Source: Methylophilaceae bacterium (GTDB lineage Bacteria; Pseudomonadota; Gammaproteobacteria; Burkholderiales; Methylophilaceae). From it: DNA of 64,000 nt. The position numbers and the translations under genes were made by a program. Below are positions 14,095 through 26,583 of the stretch, piece after piece; the stretch's first letter is position 1; each line of letters opens with the position of its first letter. The notes under the pieces were generated by a model. It did no database searches and was not told where the DNA came from. It saw only the letters and a list, made by a program, of their open reading frames with translations. The stretch covers positions 5,031-69,030 of the forward strand of contig JAYVSZ010000015.1 in NCBI GenBank assembly GCA_043774925.1. Reading direction: 5' to 3'.

Positions 14095-14661
14095 TTAATG
14101 CCCGCCTAACATGGCTTTCTTCAAATCCGCATCCACTGGCTTATCCCCCAACCAAACCTTTAACAACGCTTTGTTAAACGCTTCGCCTTCCGTTGTGCCA
14201 AGCGCCTTGCCGTTCAGGCTCGCTTGCGTGCCTTTGCCTGGCACATAATCCAACACAACCACATCGCCCTCTTTTACCGCGCCACCCGCCGTCATGTGCT
14301 GACGAAACGCTTTGAGCTGCGGCTCTAAAGCGGCCAATTCAGCAGCAGTGTTATTGGCTTCCAAGCCTTCATCCAGTGCATGCACCAATTTCTCGGCACT
14401 TAGACTGCGCAGCATGTGTAACGAAACACGTTTCGCGCCTGTATCTGAAAGCACTGCAGCTGAGTCAGTTTTTTTAGCTGACAAATATAAAGCGCCAACA
14501 TACACTTTAAACACCATTTTGGTGCGTATGCCCGCACCGTTAAGCACTAAAGCGCTATCGCCCACTTGCACGCTGTCGTCGAGCTTCACGCCGTGCACTT
14601 CTGCCGCTTGCGCTGAAAATACTACACTGGCTAACAACAAAGCCAATAAATAACGTTTCAT
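14095..14661 (-). CDS. secreted chalcone-isomerase-fold family protein (ATG at 14661; track start 14667 is TTG)
   Basis: Signal peptide ending AQA. LNGAGIRTKMVFKVYVGALYL and ALLKVWLGDKPVD are typical of bacterial CHI-like proteins. GGGGAA Shine-Dalgarno upstream of 14661. Confidence 0.7.
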   Translation of the reverse strand: MKRYLLALLLASVVFSAQAAEVHGVKLDDSVQVGDSALVLNGAGIRTKMVFKVYVGALYLSAKKTDSAAVLSDTGAKRVSLHMLRSLSAEKLVHALDEGLEANNTAAELAALEPQLKAFRQHMTAGGAVKEGDVVVLDYVPGKGTQASLNGKALGTTEGEAFNKALLKVWLGDKPVDADLKKAMLGGH

Positions 14662-14677
14662 TATCAATTCCCCAAAT

Positions 14678-14736: not shown

Positions 14737-16044
14737 TTAGAAGTTATGGGTGTACTGCACGCTTAAAATATTGACTTCGCCATCGTAGCTGCCTTTTAAG
14801 CGACCGCTGTTAAATGGGGCAGTCGGGCTATTAGCGGTTTGATTATCATCTATCGGTGCCGCACTAATAAAAAGATGCGAATAACCTATATCTACTTTGC
14901 CCGCTGGCGTTAATTGATAACTTGCACCAAGTGAAACCCATTTTCTGTCATTGCCAGGAATGCGTGCAGTGCGGAATTGGTCATCAATCGCCTCTTCATC
15001 GTAAGCTAAACCAGCACGTAGTTTTAAAGCATCACTATAATGATAATTCGCACCTACCGAATAACGCATCGTGTTATGCCAGTTTTCAGCAGTGTTTGTA
15101 AGCAAAGTACCACTCGAACGTAAAATTCTAAGTTCCTTAAATCGATTCCAACCTGTCCAAGTTACATCGCCCATCAAATCCCACTTGTCATCTATTTTAC
15201 TAAAAACACTTAAAGATAAATTTTCAGGTAAAGAAACAGCGGCTGTGACGTTTCCATTAGGTGTAGCATTTACTAGCGTAGCTGGTAAGCCGGCAGGTCG
15301 TGTAAAATTTACATCACCTTCTAGTTTCTGATTCACTTTAGAGCGATAGGCTACACCAATGCGTGTATCCGCAGTAGCTTGGTAAATAGCCCCAAGGTTA
15401 AAACCAAACCCCCAATCATCACCTTTTACCTTAGCAAGGCCCTCTCCAAAAGGACCGAAGTTTACGGCTCTAGTCAGCTCCGCTTGCGCCCACATGGCAG
15501 AAACACCAAAACCCAGCGAGAGTTGATCATTGACTTTAAAAGCAACAGCAGGATTAATGTTAATGGTTTTGACTTCTGATTTAAGCGCTTGAAAGCGACC
15601 CATCCAACCATTGTCATACTCTGTTTTAAGGCCAAATGGTGCGTTAATGCCTAACCCCAATTTAATAGAAGGCACAATATCTGTGACTAAATACATATTG
15701 GGTACAAAAGCTAAATCACCTGCATCCCCGCCGTTCCCGCCTAATGGCCTAAAAACTGTTTTCGCAAAATTAATGTTAGCTGGCACAGTGCCATTATTAT
15801 TAAACTCCGCACTGGGTTTGATGAGATGCAAAGCGCCCACCACTTGCGTGCCATCAATATACGTCATACCAGCCGGATTGAAATAGACCGTACTTGCATC
15901 TTCAGCCGCTGCTGCACCGCCTGCAAAGGCATTGCCCATGCCGCTGGCGCTTTGTTCGATAAGTGCGAAACCCGCTGCATGTGCGCCAGATGCGGCAAAT
16001 AGCGAAGCCAATACAGCAGCCTTAATAATGTGATTGTTTTTCAT
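14737..16044 (-). CDS. OmpP1/FadL/TodX-family outer-membrane hydrophobic-compound channel
   Basis: Signal peptide ...GAHA, then AGFALIEQSASGMGNAFAGGAA (canonical FadL N-terminus). Beta-strand periodicity and C-terminal YTHNF. Confidence 0.85.
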   Translation of the reverse strand: MKNNHIIKAAVLASLFAASGAHAAGFALIEQSASGMGNAFAGGAAAAEDASTVYFNPAGMTYIDGTQVVGALHLIKPSAEFNNNGTVPANINFAKTVFRPLGGNGGDAGDLAFVPNMYLVTDIVPSIKLGLGINAPFGLKTEYDNGWMGRFQALKSEVKTININPAVAFKVNDQLSLGFGVSAMWAQAELTRAVNFGPFGEGLAKVKGDDWGFGFNLGAIYQATADTRIGVAYRSKVNQKLEGDVNFTRPAGLPATLVNATPNGNVTAAVSLPENLSLSVFSKIDDKWDLMGDVTWTGWNRFKELRILRSSGTLLTNTAENWHNTMRYSVGANYHYSDALKLRAGLAYDEEAIDDQFRTARIPGNDRKWVSLGASYQLTPAGKVDIGYSHLFISAAPIDDNQTANSPTAPFNSGRLKGSYDGEVNILSVQYTHNF

Positions 16045-16873: not shown

Positions 16874-17056
16874 TTACTTTGAAACAGACTTTACTTCATC
16901 TGGGCTTGCGCGCTCTAGAATGCCCTCGGCAATGATGGCCTCAAACAAAGCCTGCACGCGGCGATCATAATTGTCATCCAATACTCTGGCGTTGCTTGCC
17001 TGATAGTTGCGCACCGCTTCACGTTCTAAAATTGCAGAATCCACTAATTTATTCAT
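16874..17056 (-). CDS. small cytoplasmic orphan protein (60 aa from ATG 17056; track start 17068 is TTG)
   Basis: ORF with a GGAGA Shine-Dalgarno 5 nt before ATG 17056. A predicted sigma70 promoter and two GGGAW-N3-WTCCC palindromes lie upstream. No recognisable domain. Confidence 0.4.
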   Translation of the reverse strand: MNKLVDSAILEREAVRNYQASNARVLDDNYDRRVQALFEAIIAEGILERASPDEVKSVSK

Positions 17057-17099
17057 GCTCTTCTCCAAACCACTTAACTTTAAACCCGTTTTTTATTTG

Positions 17100-17164
17100 G
17101 GATACTTTCCCGTTAAGCAGAACAATAAAGCTACTTAAATGCCGTGTCAAGGGAATTTATCCCT
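17100..17164 (-). promoter_or_regulatory. predicted promoter (-35 TTGACA 17146-17151, -10 TATTGT 17123-17128, 17-nt spacer) flanked by two palindromic operator-like sites
   Basis: Read on the minus strand: GGGAAAGTATCCC (17100-17112) and GGGATAAATTCCC (17152-17164). Same motif as at 25536 and 26106/26138. Confidence 0.45.
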
Positions 17165-22166: not shown

Positions 22167-23024
22167 TTAAAAGTAATACTTAAGGGTCAGGCCGCCACCC
22201 ACATCTGGGTTGGCATCGCTAAGACCGCCATAAAGCACGGCACTGAGCTTGTAGTTGTTATTAATATAATGAGAGCCATAAATTGATAGCTCTTGCGGTT
22301 TTGGCGAGCCGCTCACAGAGGCCGTTGCCCAGTCGTAAGATACGCCAACTTCGGTATCTTTAGAAAAATTATAGCCGCCGCCTAATGAGCCATAGACCAC
22401 ATTCTTGTAATTTACGCCGCTGGGCTCACCCAGAAACTTGTAACCCAAACCCAGCGAGGCGTACATTGGGCCAAAGTTCTTATCAATATTGGTTTGAATA
22501 GCGTAATCGTTCTCGCCAGAGCCCAAGCCTCGTGTATCGCTGGCAGTGCCAAACTTGATGCGCCCAGTGAAATCAACAACAAAGCCTTGGTCACCGCCAT
22601 CATAAGCTTGATATGTAGCAGCCGCAACAATATCACCTAAACCAGATTCGGTTGTTCTTACATTCGTTGCTGTAGTTGTTGAAGGTGTAGTTGTAGTAAT
22701 TGTTTGTGGGTTTGTACATGCGCCAGTACCACGTTTGCGGCAATCTGCCCCCGTGCTGATAGTTGAAGTTGAGCTTGAGCCACTAAAACCGCTTGGTACA
22801 ACGCTGCCATTACCAGTCACACGAATCCAAGGAACAGTCACTTTATAGGTGAACGCCCCCGTTCGATAAGACGCAGCTAAGGGCACATACCAAACATCTG
22901 TAGAATCACTTGTGCCATATTTGCCGGTTGAGTAATCAGCCCCTATAGAAGCACTAAAGCCATCAGCGTAAGCATTTGTTGCTAGTAAAGTTGCAGCTAT
23001 CAATAGCTGTTTGATTAAACGCAT
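22167..23024 (-). CDS. outer-membrane beta-barrel protein (resembles the MetA-pathway/'transporter' OMP family)
   Basis: Signal peptide ending AYA. WYVPLAASYRTGAFTYKVTVPWIRVTG motif, alternating beta pattern, terminal KYYF. Inserted Thr-rich loop with two Cys. Confidence 0.55.
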   Translation of the reverse strand: MRLIKQLLIAATLLATNAYADGFSASIGADYSTGKYGTSDSTDVWYVPLAASYRTGAFTYKVTVPWIRVTGNGSVVPSGFSGSSSTSTISTGADCRKRGTGACTNPQTITTTTPSTTTATNVRTTESGLGDIVAAATYQAYDGGDQGFVVDFTGRIKFGTASDTRGLGSGENDYAIQTNIDKNFGPMYASLGLGYKFLGEPSGVNYKNVVYGSLGGGYNFSKDTEVGVSYDWATASVSGSPKPQELSIYGSHYINNNYKLSAVLYGGLSDANPDVGGGLTLKYYF

Positions 23025-23041
23025 ATTATCTCCTAATGTTG

Positions 23042-24601
23042 TTATTTATACTTACCGCTACTACTGCCGCCGCCAGAACCGCCGCCACCAGGATGACTTG
23101 AGCCGCCGCCAGAGCCGCCACCCCCACTAGGGCGACTTGAGCCACCGCCTTGCGAACCGCCTATAGAACTACCGGAAGAGCCGCGTTCGCTAGCACCACT
23201 TCCAGACGAGCCAGTGGAGTCGTGTCCGCTGGCACCACTTCCGCCAGATGAGCCTTCACCAGATCTGCCATTCCCACTCGATGAACTCGATTCTGAAGTA
23301 TCTGAAGCGCCTGACGAACCAGAACTGCCCGACGCGCCTGACGTGTTTTCATTCTTGCCAGAACTGTCACTACCTTGCTTACTATTATCTTTGAATTGAA
23401 TATCAATATCAATACGATTGCCTTTTCTTTCGGATACTTTATCGGTTACCCATTGGCCTTTGTTGTTTCGGCGCAACTCAATTTTTACCAACTTATCTTT
23501 AAAGTTATCAAGTGATTCGCCTTGCGATACGCTCACTTCTGTGCCAGAAATTGATAAATGATTCTGCCCATCTTTGCGCACATAACCTTCCATAATTGCA
23601 CTATCCACAAGGTTTACGACGTTATTAATGGGTTGCGCTTCTATATGACTCGCCTGCAAAGTACCGTTATTCCAGCTACCCGCAACTTGCACCTCACTGC
23701 CCACTTTCACTTTTGCAAGCGTTTGTTTATCTGTCACATTCACTTTTGTGCCATTTACAATAAAGCCGTCGCGCGTCAACCCCGTAACCAAGCCAAGCGT
23801 ATTTGCATTAGCGCCGTCATTCACTAAATCGACCCGTGAAGCCACAATATTGCCATTAGCTAGGCGATAGCCACTTACACGCGCAACCGCATTCGGACTT
23901 GCATTTGCCAATTGACGCACAATGTTTTGATTGACATTTACCGTTTGACCCATCACGTTAATTTGCTGACGGGCAATATCCACGCCCTTAACAGGGCCGC
24001 TCACCGCGTTAAATAAGCCGATTGCACGCGCATGCAGCACACCGTTTACGCTGTTTACCTTAAGCATCACGGTCTTGCCCACGGCCAGATCTGCCAGTTT
24101 GGCTGTTTTGCCATTGTCGTATATGGGCGTAGCGCTTTCATATTGCACTTCTTCACCGTTTACGCAAATACTAGCAAAACCTGTTACGACGCCCATAATA
24201 CCCACTTCGCCCTCTGCATCTTGAGGTAATAATGCATACTCAGGCAACGAATCACCCGTACCGCCAATGCCGCCGCCTTTTGCAATCGGTGCGCCGGTGC
24301 CAGAAATGCCCCCTGTAGCCACTTTTGCACCTGTACCTGCAACACCGCCTTGAGCGACGGGCGAACCTGTCCCAGAAACGCCACCTTTAGCTACTGAAAT
24401 TCCTGTACCTGCCACACCACCTTCCGCAACAGCAGCGCCAGTGCCAGAAATGCCACCTTTAGCTGGCGCACCTGTGCCACTAATGCCACCGTCTAAACTA
24501 TAAGGATTAATCATGGATGCGGCAGAGCACGCACCTTCGCTACCCGCATGGGCATTAGCAGCAAATAATAAGCTTATGGCAATGATGGCGGCGCGAGGCA
24601 T
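23042..24601 (-). CDS. secreted multi-DUF5666-like (OB-type) repeat protein with N-terminal 12-aa Gly-rich repeats and C-terminal Ser/Gly low-complexity tail
   Basis: Signal peptide ...ANAHA. About 7 copies of GG(I/V)(S/A)GTGxxxAx. About 4 modules of the G.VT....F.VNG..V.V pattern. Last 114 aa are S/G-rich. TAATG overlap with the upstream gene. Confidence 0.6.
   Translation of the reverse strand: MPRAAIIAISLLFAANAHAGSEGACSAASMINPYSLDGGISGTGAPAKGGISGTGAAVAEGGVAGTGISVAKGGVSGTGSPVAQGGVAGTGAKVATGGISGTGAPIAKGGGIGGTGDSLPEYALLPQDAEGEVGIMGVVTGFASICVNGEEVQYESATPIYDNGKTAKLADLAVGKTVMLKVNSVNGVLHARAIGLFNAVSGPVKGVDIARQQINVMGQTVNVNQNIVRQLANASPNAVARVSGYRLANGNIVASRVDLVNDGANANTLGLVTGLTRDGFIVNGTKVNVTDKQTLAKVKVGSEVQVAGSWNNGTLQASHIEAQPINNVVNLVDSAIMEGYVRKDGQNHLSISGTEVSVSQGESLDNFKDKLVKIELRRNNKGQWVTDKVSERKGNRIDIDIQFKDNSKQGSDSSGKNENTSGASGSSGSSGASDTSESSSSSGNGRSGEGSSGGSGASGHDSTGSSGSGASERGSSGSSIGGSQGGGSSRPSGGGGSGGGSSHPGGGGSGGGSSSGKYK
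24254..24490 (-). repeat. in-frame tandem repeats of about 36 nt encoding GGISGTGAPxAK units
   Basis: Protein residues 38-116 form about 7 consecutive 11-12-aa units. Confidence 0.8.
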
Positions 24602-25521
24602 TACTGATCCCCTTTGCTTTTTGCATCGGTATCCGTATGCATCGGCTCGTGGTAAAAATAAATGCCGTAGGTCATGCGCAACTTGGGTTGGGCGGATTGG
24701 CTATCTTCCGCGTGACTATCTGCCACTTTAAACACCTCAGTTAATGTTTTCATGCCTTGTTTCTTCGCAAATTCACTAATTTCCTGAACACTTGCCATGC
24801 TCAGCTCGTCGTAGTACACACAACGCTCAAGAAAGCTGTTTTGTTGACCGAGCATATTAGAAACCGCCGCTTCGGCGTGATCATGCAGATTGTGCCCAAA
24901 GAAAAAGGCTTTTTCTTCAAACCCTTCTTGCGGAATAAACGCATCAGCCATGATATGTACTCTATTTTCTGCATCCACTGTTGCAAAGCCGAGCCGTAAC
25001 CATTCATCTAATACGGCTCTAGGATGAATATCTGTACTGACGCTACGCACCAAGCTTTCGAACGACTCTGTTTCGCCTGCAGAAGCCAACCTAGGTAAAG
25101 CTTTGGGTATGCCCTCTTTATTCAGGTATTTTGAGTCTGAGTTCCACAAAGCCATTATTTGCGAGCCAAGCGAAATATTCTCTGGCACCACCTCACCGAC
25201 CTCAGGCGAATATTCACGCAAACGACGCACATCCTTGCGATGCACGCCGCTAATCAAACTAATACGCGTATCCGTTGGTCGCTTGCCATCAATCATAAAT
25301 TCAGTATCCGACACTTCCACAAAAAGTGTTTTGAGCAAATCAATGGCAAATGTATAGCTTAAATCATTTGCTAGCATCAGCTTAATGAATGGCTTTAGCA
25401 CGCGCTTCATAGCGCTTGCGATTAATAATTGTTTTTTAGAGAAACTGTTTTCCATACTTGAAATAGTTAAGCATTTCACCCTTGAAACCATAGCATAACA
25501 AATAAAGGGATATTTTACCAT
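24601..25521 (-). CDS. orphan cytoplasmic protein with a putative helix-turn-helix (start uncertain: 25521, 25491 or 25455)
   Basis: No signal peptide. RISLISGVHRKDVRRL looks like an HTH. First gene of the operon, divergent from a small secreted-protein gene. I recall similarity to an uncharacterised DUF family (possibly DUF6502) but cannot verify it. Confidence 0.5.
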   Translation of the reverse strand: MVKYPFICYAMVSRVKCLTISSMENSFSKKQLLIASAMKRVLKPFIKLMLANDLSYTFAIDLLKTLFVEVSDTEFMIDGKRPTDTRISLISGVHRKDVRRLREYSPEVGEVVPENISLGSQIMALWNSDSKYLNKEGIPKALPRLASAGETESFESLVRSVSTDIHPRAVLDEWLRLGFATVDAENRVHIMADAFIPQEGFEEKAFFFGHNLHDHAEAAVSNMLGQQNSFLERCVYYDELSMASVQEISEFAKKQGMKTLTEVFKVADSHAEDSQSAQPKLRMTYGIYFYHEPMHTDTDAKSKGDQ

Positions 25522-25528
25522 TTATTTA

Positions 25529-25557
25529 TTGACTTGGGAAATTATCCCGAGTACTCT
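25529..25557 (+). promoter_or_regulatory. predicted sigma70 promoter (TTGACT-17 nt-TACTCT) with palindrome GGGAAATTATCCC in the spacer
   Basis: -35 at 25529-25534, palindrome at 25536-25548, -10 at 25552-25557. The architecture is paralogous to 26099-26127. Confidence 0.45.
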
Positions 25558-25609
25558 GTTGTTTCGGGGATTAAAGTTAATTTATCAAACCTCAATTAGG
25601 AGAAATATC

Positions 25610-25843
25610 ATGTTGAATCAAAAACTATTAGTAGCACTATTTAGCGCTGCACTTGCTTTGGCACCAAGCATCAGTTTTGCGCGTCAAGGCGCTGATGACG
25701 GACCAAACCATGAAGCGAATGAACACGCAGCAGGTCATGAAGCGAATGAACATGCGAGTGGCAATAACCAAGGTGGCGATAAACATGGCAGAAACCGCCG
25801 TGGCCGCGATAAAGATAATGTAATGCCAGTACCAGCACCTTAA
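25610..25843 (+). CDS. small secreted His/Asp/Arg-rich protein (77 aa)
   Basis: AGGAGA Shine-Dalgarno. Signal peptide MLNQKLLVALFSAALALAPSISFA. Mature part RQGADDGPNHEANEHAAGHEANEHASG... The track start at 25529 is a TTG inside the promoter. Confidence 0.6.
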   Translation: MLNQKLLVALFSAALALAPSISFARQGADDGPNHEANEHAAGHEANEHASGNNQGGDKHGRNRRGRDKDNVMPVPAP

Positions 25844-25866
25844 CGCGTCAATTAGTATTAAGTGCA

Positions 25867-25900
25867 ATCCCATCTGCCATTCAGCAGGTGGGATTTTTAG
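25867..25900 (+). terminator. Rho-independent terminator
   Basis: ATCCCATCTGC-cattca-GCAGGTGGGAT (one G-U pair) followed by TTTTTAGTTTTT. Confidence 0.65.
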
Positions 25901-26098
25901 TTTTTATTGTGTGTTTTGTGTCTACAGGCATCCTACTTGTTTTAATTTTTATGTAATTAGCTTAGTAATTTTTCTATATTAATTGACCTTATTTGTCTTT
26001 ACGCCCCAATTAGTACAATTAATCTTCATTTTTCAATGATTTAACTTGAACAAAAACAATTACTTATCAATTTACTTGAATTATTTTCAATTAAACTA

Positions 26099-26151
26099 TT
26101 GACACGGGAATATTTCCCGCTTAATATTCACATCAACGGGAATTAATCCCG
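26099..26151 (+). promoter_or_regulatory. predicted sigma70 promoter (TTGACA-17 nt-TAATAT) with two palindromic operator-like sites
   Basis: CGGGAATATTTCCCG (26105-26119) lies in the spacer. CGGGAATTAATCCCG (26137-26151) lies 9 nt after the -10. Confidence 0.5.
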
Positions 26152-26186
26152 TTTAATTAAGCAGGATAAACTTTAGGAGAATTATC

Positions 26187-26540
26187 ATGAATAGCAAAAA
26201 ATTAGTATTAAGTGCATTAGCAATCGCATTATTGACAACAGCAAGTTTGTCATTCTCACGTGAAGCATCTGAAGGCCCACGCGGTGCAGATCGTATTCAT
26301 AGTGGTACCCATAAAAATAGCGTTGATGCAGATGCTATGATGCTAGCGCGTCGTGGTGCGGATGATCCTGTCCCACATCCACGTGGTGAAGGCGCTGGTC
26401 ACCCTAACAGTGTTGACGTTAACGGTATGATATTAGCGCGTCGTGGTGCAGATGACCCAGTTGGTTCTGAGCGTCCAGGTGAAGTGCATGGACAAAAGCG
26501 CGGCGGTCGCAACAGTGTTGAAATTAGCACTTTAGCCTAA
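26187..26540 (+). CDS. small secreted protein built from three tandem RGAD(D)...NSV(D/E)...LA modules (117 aa)
   Basis: AGGAGA Shine-Dalgarno. Signal peptide ...ASLSFS. DNA-level duplication with a 90-nt period (AGCGCGTCGTGGTGC at 26344 and 26434). Confidence 0.65.
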   Translation: MNSKKLVLSALAIALLTTASLSFSREASEGPRGADRIHSGTHKNSVDADAMMLARRGADDPVPHPRGEGAGHPNSVDVNGMILARRGADDPVGSERPGEVHGQKRGGRNSVEISTLA

Positions 26541-26552
26541 GCCACAAGCAAT

Positions 26553-26583
26553 AAAAAAGCCGCAATTATTTGCGGCTTTTTTT
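26553..26583. terminator. bidirectional Rho-independent terminator (convergent with the DAHP synthase gene)
   Basis: AAAAAA-GCCGCAA-ttat-TTGCGGC-TTTTTTT. Confidence 0.75.

Follow-up and report, generated by a model that had tools for sequence, protein, structure and literature searches.

Five genes at positions 22167-26540 of a 64,000-nucleotide (nt) stretch of DNA from a Methylophilaceae bacterium (contig JAYVSZ010000015.1; the whole stretch is called the window) belong to a cassette for which comparative genomics shows both gene linkage and conservation of a palindromic operator. Three of the genes make up a minus-strand operon and encode a DUF6502 protein, a DUF5666 repeat protein and an outer-membrane beta-barrel. 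The two others, called D and E, encode small secreted proteins. The best explanation for the whole is a self-regulating envelope cassette in which DUF6502 would be the repressor and the barrel would export disordered proteins, and we consider this explanation evenly poised between right and wrong. The parts resemble known kinds, namely an autoregulated repressor, a FapF/COG4313 barrel and oligonucleotide/oligosaccharide-binding (OB)-like modules, and what is undescribed is their combination and the regulator family. For the cassette domains, Pfam, NCBIfam, the PDB and the searchable literature record no function, operator or regulon, in agreement with a preliminary description of the region, which had found no assigned function for the products. 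Three "domains of unknown function" can now be treated as one testable unit.

Gene linkage and the conserved palindrome

The ORF list of the window contains all five open reading frames (ORFs) of the preliminary description, and the layout given there was right in its coordinates, its overlap and gap, its signal peptides and its promoter palindromes. The DUF6502 (PF20112) gene (minus strand, 24601-25455, with the longest ORF reaching 25521) was called from Pfam and an AlphaFold2 (AF2) model, and its product is a predicted cytoplasmic helix-turn-helix regulator. The stop codon of the 24601-25521 ORF shares one base, in TAATG, with the ATG of the DUF5666 repeat protein gene (minus, 23042-24601; ORF, Pfam and repeat analysis). 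A 17-nt gap, with an AGGAG ribosome-binding site inside it, separates the DUF5666 stop codon from the ATG of the barrel gene (minus, 22167-23024; AF2 and Foldseek), whose product is modeled as a 12-stranded outer-membrane beta-barrel of the FapF/COG4313 fold. D and E, called from ORFs and sequence comparison, are transcribed divergently from this operon, and a hairpin scan found a terminator after each. D (plus, 25610-25843) encodes a 77-amino-acid (aa) secreted, disordered protein rich in His, Asn, Gly and Asp (start MLNQ), with a terminator-like hairpin on its 3' side (plus, 25866-25895). E (plus, 26187-26540) encodes a 117-aa secreted protein of three modules of about 30 aa, and a bidirectional terminator hairpin (26553-26582) lies between E and the gene for 3-deoxy-D-arabino-heptulosonate-7-phosphate (DAHP) synthase.

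A genome scan with an 11-sequence DUF6502 alignment, using one genome per species, yielded 80 loci, and all ORFs in the loci were searched locally with hidden Markov models. The loci come from the Pseudomonas putida group, Aromatoleum/Azoarcus, Gallionellaceae/Sideroxydans, Rhodocyclaceae, Comamonadaceae, Methylophilaceae and metagenome-assembled genomes (MAGs) labelled Binatia and Myxococcota. A DUF5666 gene stands directly 3' of DUF6502 in 67 of the 77 loci with enough flank, often with a 4-nt overlap. In 48 of 63 loci, the barrel gene comes next after DUF5666; another 6 have it at some other place in the locus. The proposal that the genes are a functional unit, for which a comparison of the neighborhood across lineages had been suggested, is supported by this recurrence of the DUF6502-DUF5666-barrel order in distant lineages. 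Since the order recurs and one and the same palindrome precedes the operon and the small-secreted genes in nearly every lineage, it is reasonable to assign four roles, as had been done earlier: a regulator, a periplasmic protein, a barrel in the outer membrane and secreted partners. Two Methylophilus MAGs (loci L072 and L079) carry a second, divergent DUF6502-DUF5666-barrel cassette with 45% identity, which in the L072 MAG coexists with a pqq-linked cassette (L008). The second cassette has no canonical operator close by, and its best sites lie about 4.5 kb upstream.

The operator reads (C/T)GGGAA-W4-TCCCG in the window. Palindromes of the form CGGGAA-W4-TCCCG occur at 25535, 26105 and 26137, and two more sites lie at 17098 and 17150; there are 9 strand matches in the window against 1.2 expected, and none of 100 shuffles reached 9. 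The shared operator tTGGGAAATTATCCCGa (25534-25550, with the palindrome at 25535-25549) falls within the spacer of the D promoter and over the -35 box of the divergent operon promoter. The predicted sigma-70 promoter of the operon (minus, 25512-25540) consists of TTCCCA, 17 nt and TGgTAAAAT, and the predicted promoter of D (plus, 25529-25557) of TTGACT, a 17-nt spacer that is the operator, and TACTCT. The E promoter (plus, 26099-26151) contains two operators, in the order TTGACA, operator 1 (26105-26119), TAATAT and operator 2 (26137-26151). The two further copies (17098-17112 and 17150-17164) flank a TTGACA/TATTGT promoter that leads into a 60-aa cytoplasmic ORF (MNKLVDSAILEREAVRNYQ...; minus, 16874-17056), a likely extra member of the regulon. 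This ORF matched no family and had no homologue in the 86 fetched loci.

An exact search for GGGA-W5-TCCC in 1.36 Mb of DUF6502 loci returned 65 sites, compared to 0.75 in shuffles. The two bases next to the matches on each side, which lie outside the search pattern, are conserved (G in 81% and T in 76% of cases), giving the wider 17-bp consensus GTGGGA-W5-TCCCAC. Fifty-four of the 65 sites fall within 1.3 kb upstream of DUF6502, 27 of them at 0-100 nt, and the palindrome is almost always found just 5' of DUF6502 or of a neighboring gene for a low-complexity protein with a signal peptide. Loci without an exact site mostly have a copy with one or two mismatches (GTGTGA...TCCCAC) at -30 to -150. 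The palindrome accompanies DUF6502 in alpha-, beta- and gammaproteobacteria and in MAGs assigned to Binatia, Myxococcota and Margulisiibacteriota; the Methylophilaceae loci also carry it, and in Rhizobium ATGGGAAATTTTCCCAT is found beside the DUF6502-DUF5666 pair. In Rhizobium johnstonii 3841 pRL12 (L087, 6944-9417), this pair stands beside extra flagellar hook genes, with a palindrome just after the DUF5666 stop codon.

The palindrome also often has a set position within promoters. In 15 site orientations, a TTGAC(A/G) -35 box directly adjoins it at a single offset and a -10 box follows after another 17 nt (other offsets gave 2 at most); the D and E promoters of the window have the same layout. 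Sites within the spacer of sigma-70 promoters or over their -35 box are what one expects for a repressor, and this is the part that DUF6502 would play. A CRP site was considered and rejected, as the degenerate forms read TGTGA-N5-TCACA and not N6.

DUF6502 as a candidate regulator

The helix-turn-helix-like protein had been called an orphan, a label that does not hold. It matches PF20112/DUF6502 with 110.8 bits against a gathering cutoff of 27 (6.9e-32; residues 35-292 of 306 covered), and the family numbers 2,436 relatives by a word-index search and 3,199 clusters at 50% identity by an exhaustive search. The true start is probably M23, at 25455, because homologues are 280-290 aa long and the ATG at 25521 overlaps the predicted -10 box. 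The AF2 model, with a predicted local distance difference test (pLDDT) score of 87.8, has an N-terminal helical pair, a helix-turn-helix (62-81), a winged-helix-like unit (132-168) and a long helical hairpin after it. The conserved motif SRISLLTGVHRKDVRRL maps onto helices 62-69 and 73-81. The second helix of the helix-turn-helix holds the recognition-helix motif GVHRKDV (basic helix TG-V-H-R-K-D-V), which is nearly invariant in DUF6502 homologues. For a helix-turn-helix regulator, an adjacent cognate palindrome conserved across species is looked for, and one was found upstream of DUF6502 in most loci. From the protein and DNA sequences, we infer that DUF6502 is a DNA-binding protein, probably dimeric, of a family not previously recognized as such. 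Comparative genomics further suggests that it is probably an autoregulating repressor, which would act through the palindrome on its own operon (DUF6502, the DUF5666 protein and the barrel), D, E and the 60-aa ORF at 16.9 kb until a signal relieved the repression.

The lack of a structural match is a point against this assignment. Foldseek gave no significant structural match for the DUF6502 model, the best being sigma, MarR and IclR proteins at E values of 0.26 or worse, so the fold is either new or too divergent to classify, and it is no proof of DNA binding. A sigma-factor reading was rejected, since the site is a symmetric palindrome and the sigma matches are not significant. The missing match to known DNA-binding folds, together with the presence of window sites 8 kb away, at 17.1 kb, would suit another regulator, encoded elsewhere, as the owner of the palindrome; DUF6502 could then serve the exported proteins in the cytoplasm, perhaps as their chaperone or assembly factor. 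We find this quite improbable, as the palindrome tracks DUF6502 through all of the proteobacterial classes and MAG groups named above and is absent from a locus without DUF6502 (L004). DUF6502 is also the sole conserved cytoplasmic protein of the cassette and carries the helix-turn-helix-like basic helix, and the N5 spacing of the degenerate sites is unlike the N6 of CRP. Finally, variants of the helix go with variants of the half-site: at four loci only (L058, L065, L077 and L084), the helix reads HRR or QRR and not HRK, and it adjoins palindromes of the GTGTG...CACAC type and not GTGGGA...TCCCAC, which may be protein-DNA co-variation.

Autoregulated repressors with a palindromic operator over their own sigma-70 promoter and a divergent one form a general class in bacteria. 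The cassette is like them in that its 17-bp inverted repeat overlaps the -35 and -10 boxes or lies between them, and in that its regulator gene is adjacent to, and divergent from, its targets. It differs in that no known regulator is detectably related to DUF6502 (about 285 aa) in sequence or structure. The analysis names a candidate for the regulator and the exact 17-bp site it would bind, defines a regulon and provides a structural lead for the barrel. DUF6502 by itself accounts for about 3,200 clusters at 50% identity, and the cassette is present in species of the Pseudomonas putida group, in Aromatoleum, in iron oxidizers, in methylotrophs and in rhizobia. If DUF6502 does bind the palindrome, it represents a new transcription-factor family whose regulon can be read in any genome by motif search.

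The envelope proteins and their proposed export

The barrel protein had been described as ending in KYYF, and its C-terminus is indeed LTLKYYF. Its AF2 model (pLDDT 82.5) has 12 strands, at residues 23-34, 42-55, 58-71, 124-142, 148-158, 173-184, 187-197, 209-219, 224-233, 244-253, 258-267 and 275-284. The signal peptide ends near residue 20, with no helix between it and strand 1, and the 45-residue loop 78-123 is of low confidence in the model and contains two Cys conserved among relatives. In a Foldseek search of the PDB, FapF (5o65, 5o67 and 5o68) took ranks 1-18 (E values of 7e-12 to 1e-9; template modeling scores of 0.61-0.73), followed by the COG4313 protein Pput2725 (4rl8; E = 1e-8) and then by autotransporter, FadL/TodX and porin barrels. 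Pfam gave the window barrel no PF13557 (Phenol_MetA_deg) match at an E value of 1 or better and only a DUF3187 match below the cutoff (E = 0.007); 23 of 50 barrel relatives do match PF13557. Searches of PDB sequences with the DUF6502, DUF5666 and barrel proteins and their family profiles found no relative of known structure, with chance matches only for DUF5666 and one weak match of the barrel profile to a stretch of TodX (E = 0.001). By its model, the window barrel is related to the FapF and COG4313 families and is a member of neither as defined. A homologue also occurs in a variant cassette without DUF6502 or palindrome in a Burkholderiales MAG (L004, 6518-8768), paired with a FecR-domain protein that has a long charged PEKVER-repeat tail and with a small secreted ERPEK-repeat protein. 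This type of barrel is, therefore, again tied to periplasmic proteins with disordered charged tails.

The DUF5666 protein consists of a signal peptide, seven 12-aa GG(I/V)xGTG repeats, a beta core of about 260 aa made of OB-like DUF5666 modules and a 120-aa disordered Ser/Gly tail. Pfam scored DUF5666 (PF18914) with 62 bits against a cutoff of 27 (6e-17) in 3 stretches, so that the earlier account was correct about the signal peptide, the Gly-rich repeats and the tail and was not matched in its count of about four modules. The same architecture was found in 12 distant homologues, and 13 of 13 aligned cores match PF18914. Homologue tails are always long and disordered, being either Ser/Gly-rich or built of VEKVERPEK repeats. 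RTX calcium-binding repeats (GGxGxDxUx nonapeptides) were rejected for the GG(I/V)xGTG units, which have Thr for Asp, a period of 12 aa and no Pfam match. YgiW and YdeI, of which YdeI is reported to associate with porins, are periplasmic stress proteins of the bacterial OB-fold (BOF) kind. They are similar to the DUF5666 protein in that periplasmic OB-like domains are functionally paired with an outer-membrane barrel. The DUF5666 protein differs from them in belonging to a separate Pfam family and in its roughly four tandem modules, Gly-rich N-terminal repeats and long disordered tail. A machine-learning study lists DUF5666 (PF18914) with the gene features that best predict the optimal growth pH of bacteria, as a statistical association only (PMC13255231).

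D and E both have signal peptides, as had been predicted, and neither matches any family in Pfam or NCBIfam; NCBIfam has no family for the other three proteins or for 10 partner proteins either. Their description as paralogs needs qualifying, for they are only weakly related (31% identity, E = 1e-6), with the similarity mainly in the signal peptide and an AR(Q/R)GADD motif. The mature end of D, RQGADDGPNH, has the form GADD-x2-(G/N)H. Multi-copy ORFs of the GADDxxGH type, with at least two motifs, numbered 24 among 8,677 scanned, and each of the 24 is located upstream of DUF6502 at a distance below 1.3 kb. The cassette therefore has a fourth recurrent component, a secreted GADDxxGH-repeat protein, and D is, by its motif, a short member of this group. 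E is built of REASEGPRG... and RRGADDP... modules and has only 43 relatives, each composed of 3-6 shuffled modules of about 30 aa. In E-type proteins (26187-26540; P0122-P0163), the internal junctions (I/V)LA|R(R/E)(G/A)(A/S)(D/E)(D/G)P mimic the signal-peptide junction SFS|REASEGP, which suggests either that the cleavage region was part of a duplication or that processing yields separate peptides. A multi-core precursor of ribosomally synthesized and post-translationally modified peptides was rejected as a reading of E, since the signal peptide is of the Sec type and the cassette holds no modifying enzyme; only the variation in module copy number is similar.

In the lineages examined, which do not cover every locus, the genes adjoining operators encode products with a signal peptide and low-complexity sequence. 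In Pseudomonas, these are 200-340 aa long and about 50% Gly, with GGGGH runs and GDDHGNH repeats. Those of Comamonadaceae are Ser/Gly-rich with RGRGADDAVGHVR repeats at the end, those of Sideroxydans are Met/His/Gly-rich, and one gammaproteobacterial MAG has EKPE repeats. Methylophilaceae and some Nitrosomonadales have REASEGPRG...RRGGR and RRGADDP... modules. A literature search on Gly/His-rich periplasmic proteins in P. putida found nothing.

We take the export or handling of disordered proteins at the envelope as the likeliest job of the cassette. Derepression would produce two Sec-exported kinds of protein, the disordered acidic/His type with GADDxxGH motifs (D) and the modular Arg/Gly/Asp/Glu type (E), along with a periplasmic protein of about four OB-like DUF5666 modules and a long disordered tail, and the 12-stranded barrel. 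The FapF-like barrel would then pass unfolded low-complexity polypeptides (D, E and/or the DUF5666 tail) to the cell surface, with the DUF5666 protein as its periplasmic partner in export or display. The exported proteins would be surface or matrix material that binds cations or polyanions. Export through the barrel and the ligands are put forward as hypotheses. FapF forms trimers of a 12-stranded barrel that contains a plug and has a coiled coil on the periplasmic side; it secretes unfolded substrates and needs the peptidase FapD (PMC5557850). The window barrel, of which FapF is the best structural match (E = 7e-12; template modeling scores of 0.62-0.70), resembles it in strand number and size and in sharing an operon with Sec-exported, unfolded, repeat-rich proteins as its putative substrates. 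The sequence identity is only 13-15%, and the putative substrates here, which the barrel may export, are charged and disordered, in contrast to the Gln/Asn-rich amyloid repeats of FapF.

Several results weigh against export through the barrel. The window barrel has neither an N-terminal coiled coil nor a helical plug, since the mature protein starts 2 residues before strand 1. Homologues of FapA-E and a FapD-like C39 peptidase are missing from the cassette, whose genes match only DUF6502, DUF5666 or nothing. The operator-linked proteins have little in common beyond disorder and, in part, the GADDxxGH motif. Comamonadaceae keep the regulator, the DUF5666 protein and the disordered proteins with no barrel gene within 10 kb of the cassette, and the DUF6502-DUF5666 pair on Rhizobium chromids has no barrel among the annotated genes in 7-kb flanks, so the barrel is either not obligatory or encoded elsewhere. 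In addition, COG4313 barrels, in which the N-terminus occludes the lumen, are thought to import hydrophobic molecules (PMC4493636).

This last point leads to another explanation, in which the barrel, as a channel of the COG4313 and SphA kind, takes up a small molecule that is hydrophobic or amphipathic, the DUF5666 protein receives the molecule in the periplasm, and the small proteins are co-regulated without passing through the barrel. The shared 12-stranded fold, the PF13557 matches of the relatives, the Foldseek matches to Pput2725, TodX and FadL, the weak TodX sequence match and the COG4313 literature all favor it. We still judge it improbable. FapF outscores COG4313 in Foldseek, the window barrel itself falls below the Pfam threshold, and it has no counterpart of the roughly 14 N-terminal residues with which COG4313 proteins occlude the lumen. 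Its genomic context is not catabolic, with no catabolic genes linked to the cassette, and uptake leaves the conserved co-regulation with disordered secreted proteins unexplained.

The composition of the cassette proteins makes metal binding possible. SilE and PcoE are periplasmic disordered metal sponges, and CusF is an OB-like metallochaperone. Similar to these, the cassette has small, Sec-exported, disordered proteins rich in His, Met and Asp, and the DUF5666 modules are small OB-like barrels, 2 of 13 cores giving weak CusF_Ec matches below threshold (E of about 0.01). The cassette could, therefore, be a metal-homeostasis module with DUF6502 as a divalent-metal sensor, the D-type and Gly/His-rich proteins as sponges, the DUF5666 modules as CusF-like metal binders and the barrel as a channel for cations or metal complexes. 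Such a module, which overlaps the explanation by export and does not exclude it, is a doubtful but serious candidate. Asp and His abound in the GADDxxGH and GDDHGNH motifs and the GGGGH runs, as do Met and His in the Sideroxydans partner proteins. H193 of DUF6502 is invariant in 68 of 68 aligned sequences (D192 only in the smaller 11-sequence alignment), and the DUF5666 protein of Rhizobium (L087) has a Tat-type signal (SRRQFLLAG) as well as a Pro/Gly-rich tail. In a Rhodocyclales MAG (L045, 9004-9950), a NikR-like gene is divergent from DUF6502 with two operator copies between them, and this is the sole direct metal-related neighbor seen. On the other hand, many E-type modules, such as those of L006, and many partner proteins have no His at all. 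DUF6502 has no Cys, and its one invariant His provides too few ligands to define a metal site. None of the proteins searched matched the SilE, PcoE or CusF families at threshold, and the flanks of the loci showed no conserved metal transporters and no linked RND or P-type efflux genes.

If the barrel does export the co-regulated disordered proteins, polypeptide secretion of the FapF type would extend beyond amyloids, and the question would arise of what secreted disordered proteins do at the bacterial envelope. A bolder and, in our estimation, unlikely version is that DUF6502 founds a new transcription-factor family whose regulon is an unrecognized, widespread export or display pathway for intrinsically disordered proteins. 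Here, an unplugged FapF-like barrel and a multi-OB protein would thread charged, low-complexity polypeptides to the surface as a polyelectrolyte coat or as protein "metallophores".

The pqq neighborhood and other features

The pqqA gene (23 aa, 22048-21977) lies downstream of the barrel gene in the same orientation. The spacer between the barrel stop codon and pqqA holds no terminator-like hairpin, as the preliminary description had claimed, and folds no better than shuffled sequences (z = -0.44). This adjacency without a terminator, which is conserved in Methylophilaceae, is what an involvement of the cassette in pyrroloquinoline quinone (PQQ), quinoprotein or lanthanide biology of methylotrophs, through co-transcription with pqqA, would predict. 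Nevertheless, the comparative data do not indicate such a role, and we give it very little credence. Genes for pqq and DAHP synthase flank the cassette only in Methylophilaceae loci, with pqq in 7 of more than 80 loci. The cassette is common in non-methylotrophs, and those of Pseudomonas, Aromatoleum, Gallionellaceae and Rhizobium have unrelated flanks. The palindrome scan of the window also found no operator in front of pqqA. Since the pqq flanks are confined to Methylophilaceae, the adjacency is lineage-specific synteny. A strong hairpin terminator (21963-21940) follows directly after pqqA, ahead of pqqB, and looks like an attenuator-style arrangement that would favor a short pqqA transcript.

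Rfam gave no match above gathering thresholds in the 21.8-26.7 kb part of the window. Literature searches on DUF5666, DUF6502, PF20112 and PF18914 returned only incidental mentions, in a co-expression hub-gene table, a proteome abundance table and a machine-learning table of pH features. A few kb from the cassette, the window also encodes an outer-membrane protein of the FadL/TodX family (14737-16044) and a chalcone-isomerase-like protein (14095-14667), which are a separate outer-membrane transport pair for hydrophobic compounds, unrelated to the cassette.

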